From a bacterium (GTDB lineage: Bacteria; Hinthialibacterota; Hinthialibacteria; Hinthialibacterales; Hinthialibacteraceae), in NCBI GenBank assembly GCA_041946805.1, contig JBHGBC010000164.1, forward strand, positions 1 to 13,523: a DNA stretch of 13,523 nt, written 5' to 3'. Shown piece by piece: positions 1 through 3,000 of the stretch. The first letter of the stretch is position 1. Each line of letters begins with the position of its first letter. The position numbers were made by a program.

Positions 1-3000
1 AACACAGCGATTCCGGTGAGGATTTCAGCGCATCCGGATTTTTTTTCTTGTCCAGGGAAAGATTTTTGATCAACGTGAGGGAATTGCGATTCTGTTTTCG
101 TTGATAAACCATGTCATCCAATAACTCGCGCATGATGTACCGGCCCAACCCCCCGACTTGTCTTCGGCATATGTCGTTGGAAAAGTCCGGGATGGTGGGC
201 TGCGTTTGGTCGAAGGGAATCCCCGCGTCTTCGATGGTCACCAAAAACGAATCGTTCTCTTTCCGCCACCGAATCCACAATTTGCCGTCTTTTTTTCCGC
301 AATATCCGTAACACACGATGTTGGTACACGCCTCGTCGACGGAGGTCTCCAACTTCCACAGGTTGCCTTCCGACATCCCCGATGCCCGCGCCGCTTCCCG
401 GACCCGGTCGCATATCCGGGCGAGCTCATCCAAGGTTGCTGGGAATTCCGCGAAGTTGGCAGACGATTCATTCATGGATACAGGATATGTCATCATCCCA
501 GTTTATCTTTGTTTTTCCATTTCCCGCCCCAGTCTCATTCGTTCCGATTAAAGTAACACAAGAAAGCCACGTTGAAAAGCTACCATATTTAACAAGTTTA
601 GTAAACAAAAGAAGTTTCGTCCAAAAGGCCTCTTCCCTTTTTCCCCTATTTCGCGTTTGGTCCCATTATTCGCGGATTTGCTTTTCCGGTTTAAGGGATT
701 TCTTCTTTTCCATATTGTAGTTCACGATCTGCCGGTTTTACAAATTCTTTCGGTCATTTCATCCAATGGCTAGTCCGATCCACGGTATGTGACTCCTCTT
801 TTTTTCATTGCCATTCCTCCTTCCTTACCGCCACGTACCTAGGCGAACCACACATCCCTTTGGTAAACTGGCGGATTAAATGCGGAATCGAGATGAAAAA
901 TAGATCCTTCCGCATGTTTCGTTTCATCCATGAGGCAGGCTCACCATGGCTGACCGTTTCTATCGCGCCGCACGGAACGACTATACAATTGTAGACAGCA
1001 TGAACGATTCGCTCCGCTTCACGACGCGGCGTTGCCTGACCACCTATCAGGGCAACCTGTGCGCCACATCCACGTTTTTGGATCCGGAGGGCGTTCCCGC
1101 TATATGGCACGAATTCGGCGAGCTGGAGGGTGTGGGCTGGGCCGCCAATGTAGTGGGGGGAGCGCATGAGATTCTCTGGTATACCCGCTTTTTCAACCAT
1201 CCCCGGATGCGGGCGACCGGTGTTTCCCTGCTCCACCATGCCCTCGAAGGCGGATTTTTCCACGAAGACGGCTTCGTGATTCCCTACCGGGATATTCCAT
1301 CGGACAAACGCTATCTGAACTACCTGCACAAGTCCGAGTATGATCACTGGTTCTGTCCGGGTTCCACGGCCCATATCGCGCTGCAACTACTCTGGGCAGC
1401 CGACCTCGTATCGGAACCATTAAAATCACAAATTACCGAAAAATCTTTACTTATATCGGATTGGCTATGGAACCATGTTAAGCGGCTGGAGAATGGCTGG
1501 TATCCCCGCCGTTGCCGGCCGGATGGATCTCCAATCACTTTCAACGCCATGGGGACCGTTCCGGACTCCCAGTTCGATCACAGCGGCGACGGGACTTATC
1601 TCTTGTGGCTTTGGGTGGAGCTGACCCGCCGGGGTTTCAGAAATTACCGGAAGGAAATCCGAGGCATTGCCGATGCATACCGGGACTTGGGCGGGGCGTT
1701 CGGCAGCATCAATCACGACACCTACGATGACCACGAAAACGTGGCCTACAGTGTGGGATTCCGCTGCCTGTCCCGGACGGCCAATCTGTTGCGCGACACG
1801 GCCTTGTACGATTGGGCGCTGGCGGTATGCCTGCACGGCCTGGAGAGATTCGAGCTGAAGCAAGACCGCAACGGCATGGCCACCCAAGGCTTGCTCTACA
1901 TGGAGGATTCGTGGGATACCTCGTATCTTTGGGAGAACGCGGAAGCCGCCCTGGCCTATTTCGAGGCCGCCGCCGCGACACGGATCCAGTCGTATGAGAT
2001 CAAAGGCCTGACCATTCTGCGCGCCGCCGCCTTGCATCACCACGGCGAACACGGATTCCTGACCGAAGGAGTCGATTGGAACAACCACAACGCCCAGTGG
2101 CGCATCATCAATGGCAAACAGATCCCTATCCACGTGGGGGGCGTGGTTTACGGGGACGTCAACTACACCCAGCCGTTCCTCAATAACATGCACATTACCG
2201 CCCCGACGTTATACTACCTGGAAAACCTAGCGTACCAATTTCAGGATAAGCACAACATCCATTACCTCGACTGTGAGGAAAATGGATTGACCACAGTTCC
2301 TGTGTCATGATAAAGAAGGATGATCCTGGGTGCTTTCTTTCTTCTCGTTCTTCTGGAGTAAGCCAAAGCAAAAAGCACCAATGCAAGACCTTCCCTCATC
2401 CTGGCCCTCTACCAAAGGGAGAGGGGATGGGAGTGGTTCTCTCAGAACGGTAAATAAAGGAAACTATTTATGGTTCATCCGACAAGTGCGTACCCGCTGG
2501 AGAAGAAGGCATTCCATCCTCTCGATAAAATTCGGGCGGACACCAAGGTCCGCCCCTACAATAATTCCCTCACCCTGGTCCTCTCCCGGGGGGGAGGGGA
2601 TCAGGGGATTGATCACCCCGGTCTGCCCGATTGAAGAGTGGCCGGACCTGCTTGAAAAAAAAGTACGCACTTATCGGATGAGCCTTATTTATCGGGATGC
2701 AGTATTGTTTTTCAAGCGCCAACGGCGCGGCATGAGCATAGCCCAGGGCATGAGCCCTGGGATGCTGGCCTCAAAAGAAGCTAATCCCCTCTCCCTCTGG
2801 GAGAGGGGCAGGGTGAGGGAAGCCCTGAAAGGGCGGAATAAATAGCACGTATTTATGAGTAAATAAGTACATATTGCCTTTTACAAAAAATGGAAAAATC
2901 CAATTAAAACTATCCGATTCCAAAAGGAAAGGAATTCCACATGAAACGATTCAGGCTCGCTGTTTTGATTCTCGTTCTTCTTCCCATCACCTTTTCCTGG

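Follow-up and report, generated by a model that had tools for sequence, protein, structure and literature searches.

What kind of element occupies positions 2472-2684 of this contig, and how did the 33-nt hairpin associated with such elements come to about a thousand copies in a single bacterial genome? The window that we analysed, positions 1-13523 of contig C73 (13,523 nt), belongs to a genome of 6,702,519 bp in 315 contigs. Within it, 2472-2684 holds a MITE of 213 bp, bounded by inverted ends of 22 nt and flanked by an AT-rich 8-bp duplication. Its insertion site, an AT-rich 8-mer, lies in the spacer separating two same-strand genes, and the sister species G016 has no MITE at the corresponding locus. 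An ORF spanning the MITE region (2330-2845) matched no Pfam family. The element is built as follows.

2464..2471, no strand: left copy of the target-site duplication, CTATTTAT; the two flanking 8-mers agree at 7 of 8 positions
2472..2493, plus strand: left terminal inverted repeat, GGTTCATCCGACAAGTGCGTAC, 1 mismatch against the family consensus
2494..2567, plus strand: left MITE arm, flank community 2, containing a minus-strand terminator-like hairpin (2555-2534)
2568..2600, plus strand: inner triple-box hairpin, decayed; folds with its G-rich flank into a 15-bp stem
2601..2662, plus strand: right MITE arm, assigned to flank community 7
2663..2684, minus strand: right terminal inverted repeat, GGCTCATCCGATAAGTGCGTAC as reverse complement; its counterpart in the parent IS encodes the transposase C-terminus
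2685..2692, no strand: right duplicate of the target site, TTATTTAT; throughout the genome the duplicated length is exactly 8 nt

The genome-wide survey's note had picked this element as its example of a complete MITE. Its hairpin calls for a correction: the third box of its own inner copy at 2568-2600 reads GGGGAGGGG, and this decayed copy is missed at up to 4 substitutions. We also mapped reads from the probable source run and from a sister run. The contigs break inside repeats, the joints listed represent other repeat copies, and among them there was no clean empty-site allele of 2472-2684.

Globally, the family behaves as a MITE family should, with inverted ends, a fixed 8-nt duplication and many copies, which upholds the earlier reading. 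Hairpins and inverted ends were counted under mismatch cut-offs with a reversed-sequence control. At up to 4 mismatches we recovered the same 648 inverted ends as reported before (330 plus, 318 minus, control 0), and pairing adjacent plus and minus ends again gave 168 pairs, 146 of them under 400 nt. These 146 complete MITEs range from 141 to 375 nt, and most fall into the two size classes already described: 96 measure 203-215 nt and 32 measure 243-270 nt. The 8-nt duplication was likewise recovered: the flanks were identical in 37 of 144 cases and differed by one mismatch in 36, while a length of 7 nt yielded only 2 identical pairs, a length of 9 nt none, and the offset control none with up to 2 mismatches. 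The target flank is 80% A+T. A mixed consensus had made the whole MITE look like one long palindrome; the subfamily consensuses show inverted repeats at the ends alone.

Which transposase do these ends belong to? The proposed ISL3 parent is supported by the remnant at C163:3914-4793, which is bracketed by both inverted ends and has PF01610 (DDE_Tnp_ISL3) between them (E=4.9e-44). It is a deleted copy with 2 stops, and its frame extends into the right end, terminating in ...KYALVG*. The family relative G013 (contig C64) carries a 370-aa ISL3 frame, 67% identical, whose ...KYALTG* terminus lies within an end with 1 mismatch. In the same relative, full-length ISL3 copies measure 1,434-1,441 nt and have related ends; 1 of 3 has identical 8-nt flanks. 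We read 2472-2684 as a non-autonomous ISL3-family MITE inserted into an AT-rich 8-mer; a DDE transposase of that family, provided in trans, would bind to its 22-nt ends and integrate it with an 8-bp duplication. We agree with the survey that the assembly contains no intact transposase bracketed by these ends (5 PF01610 matches); given its 315 contigs, a collapsed intact ISL3 copy could be missed. The near-complete ISL3 on contig C3 is an unlikely trans-acting source, with an in-frame stop, different ends and 35% identity to the remnant. Since the arms lie 13-15% off the consensus of their subfamily, and the two copies of the duplication agree to within one mismatch in only 73 of 144 cases, MITE activity is not recent. 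With no intact cognate transposase in the assembly, the family may now be a fossil.

The same relative informs us about the hairpin. G013 has 37 such inverted ends and MITEs of 216-303 nt, with 0 hairpins and with differing interiors in the seven MITEs sampled. The hairpin is therefore cargo and not intrinsic to the MITE.

What, then, is the cargo? Judged by its sequence, the 33-nt hairpin is one already described from E. coli, the BoxC / PIT / TM_ECO triple-box motif. BoxC/PIT elements have been on record from that species since the 1990s, and we know of no accepted function and no established means of spread for them. The survey's account was right about the repeat itself and missed this identity: the reverse complement of the hairpin, CCCTCTCCC-TCN-GGGAGAGGG-YYR-GGGTGAGGG, fits the pattern 5'-CCCTCNCCC N3-6 GGGNGAGGG N3 GGGNGAGGG-3' given by Holder et al. 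2015 (PMC4666352). Positions 2782-2824 of the window find a match in 4,680 of the 5,426 complete E. coli genomes compared, and in 4,392 the match spans 80% or more of the query. The motif consists of a C-box, 3 nt, a second C-box, 3 nt and a G-box, so laid out that a 9-bp hairpin is possible on either strand. On paper, its G-rich strand also has the sequence make-up that a purine-motif intrastrand triplex calls for, with a mirror-symmetric purine box and a third G-box, as well as that of a G-quadruplex (four G3 runs with 3-nt loops). Holder et al. describe a stable triplex in vitro and a raised level of rearrangement at these loci when E. coli strains are compared (PMC4666352), and the same E. 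coli units have been interpreted as a G-quadruplex-hairpin switch (bioRxiv 10.1101/032615).

The motif CCCTCACCCYRRCCCTCTCCCNGAGGGAGAGGG occurred 257, 568, 778, 946, 1019, 1095 and 1161 times in the whole genome at up to 0, 1, 2, 3, 4, 5 and 6 mismatches, respectively. The reversed control gave 0 copies up to 5 mismatches and 1 at 6. The earlier figure of 946 (with 0 in the control) was reproduced exactly; that of 1,072 at up to 6 mismatches was not, our count being 1161. Besides the MITE, the window contains the following repeats.

2393..2425, plus strand: free triple-box hairpin, 3 mismatches, with an intact ortholog in sister species G016
2715..2761, minus strand: Acido-Lenti-1 (RF01687) module scoring 38.6 bits, above the gathering score of 37
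2787..2819, minus strand: triple-box hairpin, 1 mismatch, in a composite with the Acido-Lenti-1 module
4966..4998, plus strand: triple-box hairpin, 2 mismatches, from the motif scan
5332..5353, minus strand: lone inverted end (half-MITE), 3 mismatches, with a decayed hairpin at 5226-5260
6625..6657, plus strand: triple-box hairpin, 1 mismatch, from the motif scan
13000..13021, minus strand: lone inverted end, 3 mismatches, adjoined by an Acido-Lenti-1-like site (12935-12984)

Genome-wide, 48 of 150 scored Acido-Lenti-1 candidates reach the gathering score. This Rfam 'sRNA' behaves as a dispersed repeat module in this genome, a point relevant to annotation.

How much of the hairpin's abundance is accounted for by carriers? 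Among 1,019 copies, 127 lie in complete MITEs, 214 beside a lone end, 458 in other shared flanks, and 220 are solo. Overall, 78% have longer shared flanks, and 341 are within 200 nt of an inverted end. That the bulk of complete MITEs hold the hairpin stands, although we count 127 hairpins where 128 elements had been given. The statement that the rest stand alone does not hold: with the motif masked, 784 of the 1,019 copies have a 120-nt flank in common with another copy. The carriers include at least 3 ISL3-MITE subfamilies as well as further composite repeats, among them one with Acido-Lenti-1 modules attached. Most loci (794 of 903 clusters) contain a single unit. No target duplication surrounded the solo units (220-231) when 80 combinations of offset and length were tried; these units could be decayed cargo, or could have come in by another route.

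The lone ends reveal where the carriers come apart. Starting from the tip, 216 of them can be aligned to a MITE consensus; in 106 of these the similarity ends no more than 6 nt from the hairpin, 73 times in a single 10-nt bin at the hairpin's 3' edge. Arm combinations were parental in 69 + 37 MITEs and crossed in 15 + 4. The hairpin is a breakpoint at which MITE halves are lost or swapped. These breakpoint statistics fit the published 'genomic instability' idea. A short unit inserting itself into other repeats could also give rise to breakpoints at the hairpin.

We consider it probable that an ISL3 MITE carried the BoxC/PIT hairpin as cargo, that its copies multiplied, and that they then became mosaic through crossover and deletion at the hairpin. 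It would have been chiefly as cargo of MITEs and composite repeats that the motif rose to about 1,000 copies. Its identical 33-mers would then have served as crossover or deletion points, presumably through recombination or slippage, so that MITE halves were lost exactly at the hairpin, and arms of different MITE subfamilies would have been exchanged across it, producing a BIME-like mosaic.

Cargo carriage has to be weighed against the distribution of the motif elsewhere. Exact matches were confirmed in at least 125 stretches from many phyla. The survey had left open whether other phyla carry the hairpin in ISL3-type MITEs; among the matches listed, an inverted end lay within 300 nt at 0 of 125 loci. 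An Archangium genome has 464 copies and a Dehalococcoidia genome 130; carriers that are in culture include Archangium gephyra and Pseudomonas chlororaphis. At 20 sampled loci in each of the two genomes, the copies had only the unit and a lineage-specific 5-8-nt flank in common, longer flanks recurring in 2 of 40 cases in the first and in 0 of 40 in the second. The motif thus stands free in two genomes of other phyla, so that MITEs are not its general vehicle, and with flanks so nearly unshared, some MITE-independent spreading route must exist.

Such observations would suit a 33-45-nt unit that is itself mobile in the manner of a REP, copied by some trans-acting enzyme into intergenic DNA and repeats, with MITE carriage and mosaics as secondary nesting. 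The unit borders are indeed sharp, information content being lost within 3-4 nt on both sides, and the occurrence is patchy (17 of 35 genomes of this phylum; 8 of 121 sampled Planctomycetota). On the other hand, the solo units are without target duplication, the longer flanks shared by 78% of copies here speak for carriage, and no candidate enzyme emerged, as both Y1 transposase genes of this genome are unflanked by the unit. The Dehalococcoidia genome with its 130 copies has no Y1_Tnp match. A RAYT/REPtron arrangement was rejected: the unit lay within about 1.5 kb of 0 of 2 Y1 loci here and of 1 of 20 in four other carriers. We regard self-mobility of the unit as unlikely.

A broader reading, which we put forward as possible but doubtful, sees in the BoxC/PIT triple-box a selfish unit of about 33-45 nt, present across bacteria and spreading horizontally, which hitch-hikes in unrelated non-autonomous elements and acts as a general engine of mosaic intergenic repeats. 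The vehicles would be the ISL3 MITEs of this genome and, in a Planctomycetota genome, a different element in the form of a palindromic doublet. Being the same everywhere and liable to adopt odd DNA structures, the motif might serve as a crossover joint that shuffles and truncates elements. If this were true, the ISL3 MITE would be the motif's first transposase-defined vehicle.

Could the hairpin instead be retained by selection as an RNA element, a terminator or a stabiliser of mRNA 3' ends, as has been proposed for REP sequences? In Enterobacter sp. 638, 100 repeats of this kind have been proposed to act as terminators (PMC2869309). The 9-10 bp stem is stable (about -10 to -12 kcal/mol as DNA, about -19 as RNA), and within MITEs the hairpin agrees with its consensus better (0.94-0.96) than the arms do (0.85-0.87), apparent conservation being inflated in hairpin and inverted-end sets selected by similarity thresholds. 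The avoidance of promoter-side spacers claimed earlier points the same way and is weaker than stated: with genes called crudely as longest ORFs, on which the spacer classes depend, the density was lowest in divergent spacers (0.82 per kb), 0.99 in tandem ones and highest, at 1.16, in convergent ones. Against selection, no U-run comes after the stem, the downstream consensus is R-A-T-T and then G-rich, and a terminator scan ignores the motif. Orientation in tandem spacers is 221:220, and the median relative spacer position of 0.49 shows no shift toward the upstream stop codon. Compensated stem changes do not exceed expectation (for example, 9 vs 7.6 and 3 vs 1.7), a comparison uninformative at such low divergence, and of the orthologous pair at 2393-2425 it is the copy in this genome that has decayed. 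Work on E. coli cited by Holder et al. found neither promoter nor terminator activity (PMC4666352). Given the missing U-run and the absence of orientation and position bias, we reject the terminator reading, and retention as an RNA element in general seems to us very improbable. Hairpins are also enriched near contig ends, 90 of 630 ends having one within 300 nt against about 29 if copies were evenly spread; the enrichment was reported before, with a slightly different count (92).

The cargo reading gives BoxC/PIT a concrete vehicle, an ISL3-type MITE with 8-bp duplications, and makes both the vehicle and the instability ideas testable. We found no link of the motif to MITEs, transposons or any transposase-defined element in the open-access literature, nor a printed report of the hundreds of copies in five other phyla.

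Compared with BoxC/PIT/TM_ECO of E. coli and other Enterobacteria as described by Holder et al., the motif has the same three 9-mers, order and 3-nt spacers, and it is likewise extragenic, multi-copy and at times present as inverted pairs (PMC4666352). E. coli copy no. 17 of their Table 1 differs from the survey's motif at one loop position, and their 'mismatch' variant CCCTCGCCC...GGGAGAGGG recurs in the relatives G006, G007 and G009. Holder et al. count 3,610 copies across 262 proteobacterial genomes and at most 143 in any one genome, and they state that they found no transposase remnants nearby (PMC4666352). By contrast, we find 778-1,019 copies in a member of a small non-proteobacterial phylum, about one third of them in or beside ISL3-type MITEs. 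Thus the copy number is several-fold above that published maximum, about 1,000 copies per genome being without precedent in print that we could find, and the motif is common well beyond Proteobacteria.

REPs are lineage-specific, whereas the unit here is common across phyla. It resembles REP/BIME/REPIN sequences as a short GC-rich extragenic palindrome present in hundreds of copies and in mosaics with other modules, but it is without RAYT flanking and without a GTAG or CGTC head, and is mostly single. With ISL3 insertion sequences and their MITEs, the carrier shares DDE_Tnp_ISL3 between these ends, 22-nt ends beginning GG, an AT-rich 8-bp duplication and a transposase stop inside the right end. 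It differs in that this genome is without an intact cognate copy, and its interior is not that of a simple IS deletion derivative, since it holds the triple-box hairpin in this genome and different hairpin modules in G013.

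The MITE at 2472-2684 in the window (C73:1-13523, from a genome of 6.70 Mb in 315 contigs with 58.4% G+C) sits within the 630 bp that separate two genes of the same strand. This spacer is built as a repeat mosaic, with one free hairpin, the MITE, a match to Acido-Lenti-1 and a second free hairpin.

Features of the MITE-bearing spacer
ends at 2310: upstream gene, a 454-aa ORF without a Pfam family
2393-2425, + strand: free hairpin
2472-2684: MITE with 22-nt inverted ends, left GGTTCATCCGACAAGTGCGTAC, right (as reverse complement) GGCTCATCCGATAAGTGCGTAC; 8-nt flanks, left CTATTTAT, right TTATTTAT
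2568-2600: inner hairpin of the MITE, decayed, folding here as a 15-bp stem formed with the G-rich flank
2715-2761, - strand: Acido-Lenti-1 (RF01687) match, scoring 38.6 bits (gathering score 37)
2787-2819, - strand: second free hairpin
starts at 2941: downstream gene, FAA-hydrolase family

Folded as RNA, the whole MITE reached -106.9 kcal/mol (z = -7.0). In the sister species, whose flanking genes at this locus are ~88% identical, only the first hairpin is present, intact, and the MITE and all downstream repeats are missing. The left arm of the MITE also holds a terminator-like site at 2555-2534 (-), an 8-bp stem with 7 G-C pairs followed by GAATTTTATC. Elsewhere in the window (8044-10162), an N6/N4 DNA methylase adjoins a STAND/AAA-type ATPase that matches BrxC/D weakly, and the two may be a defence-like gene pair.

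The genome-wide survey's note had claimed about 1,000 hairpins, carriage in MITEs and an ISL3 parent, and our counts largely reproduced its census. Allowing at most 0, 1, 2, 3 and 4 mismatches, the genome contains 257, 568, 778, 946 and 1,019 hairpin copies, respectively, and the reversed hairpin gave 0 copies in the same genome at each of these thresholds. The inverted end occurred 648 times genome-wide at up to 4 mismatches (control, 0). These ends formed 168 adjacent plus/minus pairs, 146 of them shorter than 400 nt, with sizes of 203-215 nt in 96 pairs and 243-270 nt in 32. The target duplication is exactly 8 nt long: 37 of 144 flank pairs were identical and 36 had one mismatch, while only 2 were identical at 7 nt and none at 9 nt, and the offset control gave none with at most two mismatches. 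The A+T content of the duplication flank is 80%. Both repeats break the assembly: hairpins lay within 300 nt of 90 of the 630 contig ends, against ~29 expected, and inverted ends within 300 nt of 123. The observation is real and the counts are sound, as are the MITE and its ISL3 origin.

The proposed parentage held up at C163:3914-4793, where a DDE_Tnp_ISL3 match (E=4.9e-44, two internal stops) lies between both ends, which carry 0 and 1 mismatch. The transposase frame enters the right end and terminates there (...KYALVG*), so the MITE end is the 3' end of the transposase gene. A family relative (G013) has a 370-aa ISL3 frame with 67% identity, which ends ...KYALTG* within a one-mismatch end; its full ISL3 copies measure 1,434-1,441 nt and have related ends (GGYTCATCCGGAAATTGGG), with identical 8-nt flanks in one of three. 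In another relative (G014), at least 10 contigs start ~100-130 nt within an element and leave it by the same inverted end (for example C12:104-125, C14:104-125 and C21:106-127). A collapsed multi-copy IS gives this pattern, which suggests a high-copy, possibly active ISL3 in that relative. No intact cognate ISL3 was found in the present assembly. The MITE arms diverge by 13-15% from the consensus within subfamilies, indicating that the MITE bursts were not recent. We rejected a near-complete ISL3 on C3 as the cognate copy, given its in-frame stop, other ends and 35% identity to the remnant. This element (within C3:1-3201) begins at the contig edge, its frame is split by the one stop (13-447 and 466-1269), and its right end overlaps the 3' end of an opposite-strand 190-aa Y1 (IS200-like) transposase ORF.

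Most hairpins share their surroundings with other copies. With motif copies masked, the 120-nt flank of 784 of the 1,019 copies was similar to that of a non-overlapping copy. The mean number of mismatches was 1.06 for the 127 hairpins in complete MITEs, 1.46 both for the 214 beside a lone end and for the 458 with other shared flanks, and 1.87 for the 220 solo hairpins; the rise is consistent with a greater average age of solo copies. The flanks fell into ~13 communities of similar sequence, including several left and right MITE arms, an Acido-Lenti-1 module and an Acido-Lenti-1-like variant. On the two sides of the hairpin, these modules are freely combined. Of 903 clusters, 794 hold a single unit. 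In one module pair (communities 5 and 6) the outer ends are mutual inverted repeats, GTAACTATTTAC / GTAAATAGTTAC. The pair makes up a second MITE-like family flanking hairpins, seen at ~2820-2880 in the window and with both arms at 23 hairpins.

Rfam lists Acido-Lenti-1 (RF01687) as an sRNA; in this genome it behaves as a dispersed repeat. The window has three sites, at 2715-2761 (-), 5100-5149 (+) and 12935-12984 (-). Among the 150 candidates scored out of 1,675 from a first look, 127 had E<=0.01 and 48 passed the gathering score, and many matches lie at contig ends. The module sits ~20 nt 3' of the hairpin in 163 flanks, and similar hairpins occur inside the ISL3-type MITEs of G013.

The hairpin is also where MITEs break. 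Among 216 lone ends that align to the MITE consensus from the tip, similarity was lost within 6 nt of the hairpin in 106, and 73 of the breakpoints share a single 10-nt bin at the 3' edge of the hairpin. Of the remaining ends, 45 lose similarity earlier and 45 in the far arm; 20 extend over the full length, their second end having diverged. Complete elements also showed arm swaps across the hairpin (parental combinations 69 and 37, crossed 15 and 4). As the simplest reading, we infer deletion or exchange between copies of the identical 33-mer, which would leave MITE halves lost or swapped. Alternatively, the breakpoints could come from the bare unit inserting into other repeats. The unit does have sharp borders (TT, the 33 nt, then R-A-T(T)); no target duplication was found around solo units. 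Neither of the two Y1 transposase genes of this genome is flanked by the unit, only 1 of 22 Y1 loci in this genome and other carriers has a unit nearby, and one carrier genome lacks Y1_Tnp entirely.

A role of the hairpin in RNA received little support. Bare hairpins, 100 of which were counted in Enterobacter sp. 638, were proposed there as a terminator (PMC2869309). Here, no U-run follows the stem, and a terminator scan raised no flag on the motif. By crude longest-ORF gene calls, the density was 0.99 hairpins per kb for tandem spacers, 1.16 for convergent and 0.82 for divergent ones, the orientation in tandem spacers was 221:220, and the median relative position within the spacer was 0.49. 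Another 69 copies fell inside crude ORFs of at least 250 aa, many of them perhaps within over-extended 5' ends. Compensated stem changes equalled the expectation under independence. Our best estimate is that the hairpin is a putative structure-prone selfish module, whose main effects would fall on DNA (recombination, deletion), with little or no regulatory-RNA role.

Within the phylum, the motif (at most 2 mismatches) occurred in 17 of the 35 genomes in the collection with 1 to 778 copies, the highest counts being 778 in the window's genome, then 223 and 206; the inverted end occurred in 15 of the 35. The two features do not track each other: 37 ends and 0 hairpins are present in G013, and two other genomes of the phylum (G023 and G025) lack ends, with more than 200 hairpins. 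Beyond the phylum, the reported cross-phylum identity was borne out by exact matches in at least 125 stretches, which among the matches listed come from genomes assigned to Planctomycetota, Pseudomonadota, Chloroflexota, Myxococcota, Verrucomicrobiota, Thermodesulfobacteriota, Calditrichota, Nitrospirota, Acidobacteriota and others. Whole-genome counts at up to 2 mismatches reached 361 in a Thermoguttaceae MAG, 130 in a Dehalococcoidia MAG, 464 in Archangium gephyra, 237 in Pseudomonas chlororaphis and 214 in a Caldithrix MAG. Occurrence is patchy: of 121 evenly sampled Planctomycetota genomes, 8 (including the seed genome) carry the motif at up to 1 mismatch, and only 3 of the other 120 have at least 3 copies. 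In metagenome run X1, summed contig depth over window 2370-2840 was tens of thousands at the hairpin versus ~16 on unique flanks, so the motif is highly abundant across the organisms of that soil metagenome.

Among the 125 other-phyla matches listed, none had an ISL3-type end within 300 nt, and the TT...AAT flanks of this genome's hairpins are not conserved there. At 20 loci each, 200-nt flanks were common to others in 2 of 40 for Archangium and 0 of 40 for Dehalococcoidia, and a lineage-specific 5-8-nt signature adjoins the unit; in both, spread or retention of the unit takes place without a MITE. In the Thermoguttaceae MAG (e.g. loci L217-L222), many units are inverted doublets with a fixed start-to-start spacing of 83 nt. 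A longer palindromic element whose ends differ, being for instance GGACTTTTGCAAATTG, encloses some of these doublets and would represent another type of carrier.

The hairpin has been described before. The TM_ECO pattern of Holder et al. 2015 (PMC4666352), CCCTCNCCC-N3-6-GGGNGAGGG-N3-GGGNGAGGG, is the reverse complement of the surveyed motif, and E. coli copy no. 17 in their Table 1 differs from it at one loop position; BoxC and PIT are older names for the same element. Window 2782-2824 matches 4,680 of 5,426 complete E. coli genomes. A 'mismatch' variant, with C-box CCCTCGCCC opposite GGGAGAGGG, dominates in some relatives (G006, G007 and G009) and in the E. coli copies of that table. This C-box forms a better pairing with the third box, GGGTGAGGG, at the cost of one G-T wobble, so a conserved alternative pairing is possible. 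In the open-access literature we found no published account of the scale, the phyla, the transposase-defined vehicle or the breakpoint evidence described here. Holder et al. give 3,610 copies across 262 proteobacterial genomes and no more than 143 in any one of them, with transposase remnants absent near copies, and a triplex stable in vitro and not in duplex DNA or in vivo; a preprint reads the element as a G-quadruplex-hairpin switch (bioRxiv 10.1101/032615). Holder et al. (PMC4666352) also describe increased rearrangement at triple-box loci, and deletion or exchange between hairpin copies, as read from our breakpoints, fits the instability reported for E. coli.
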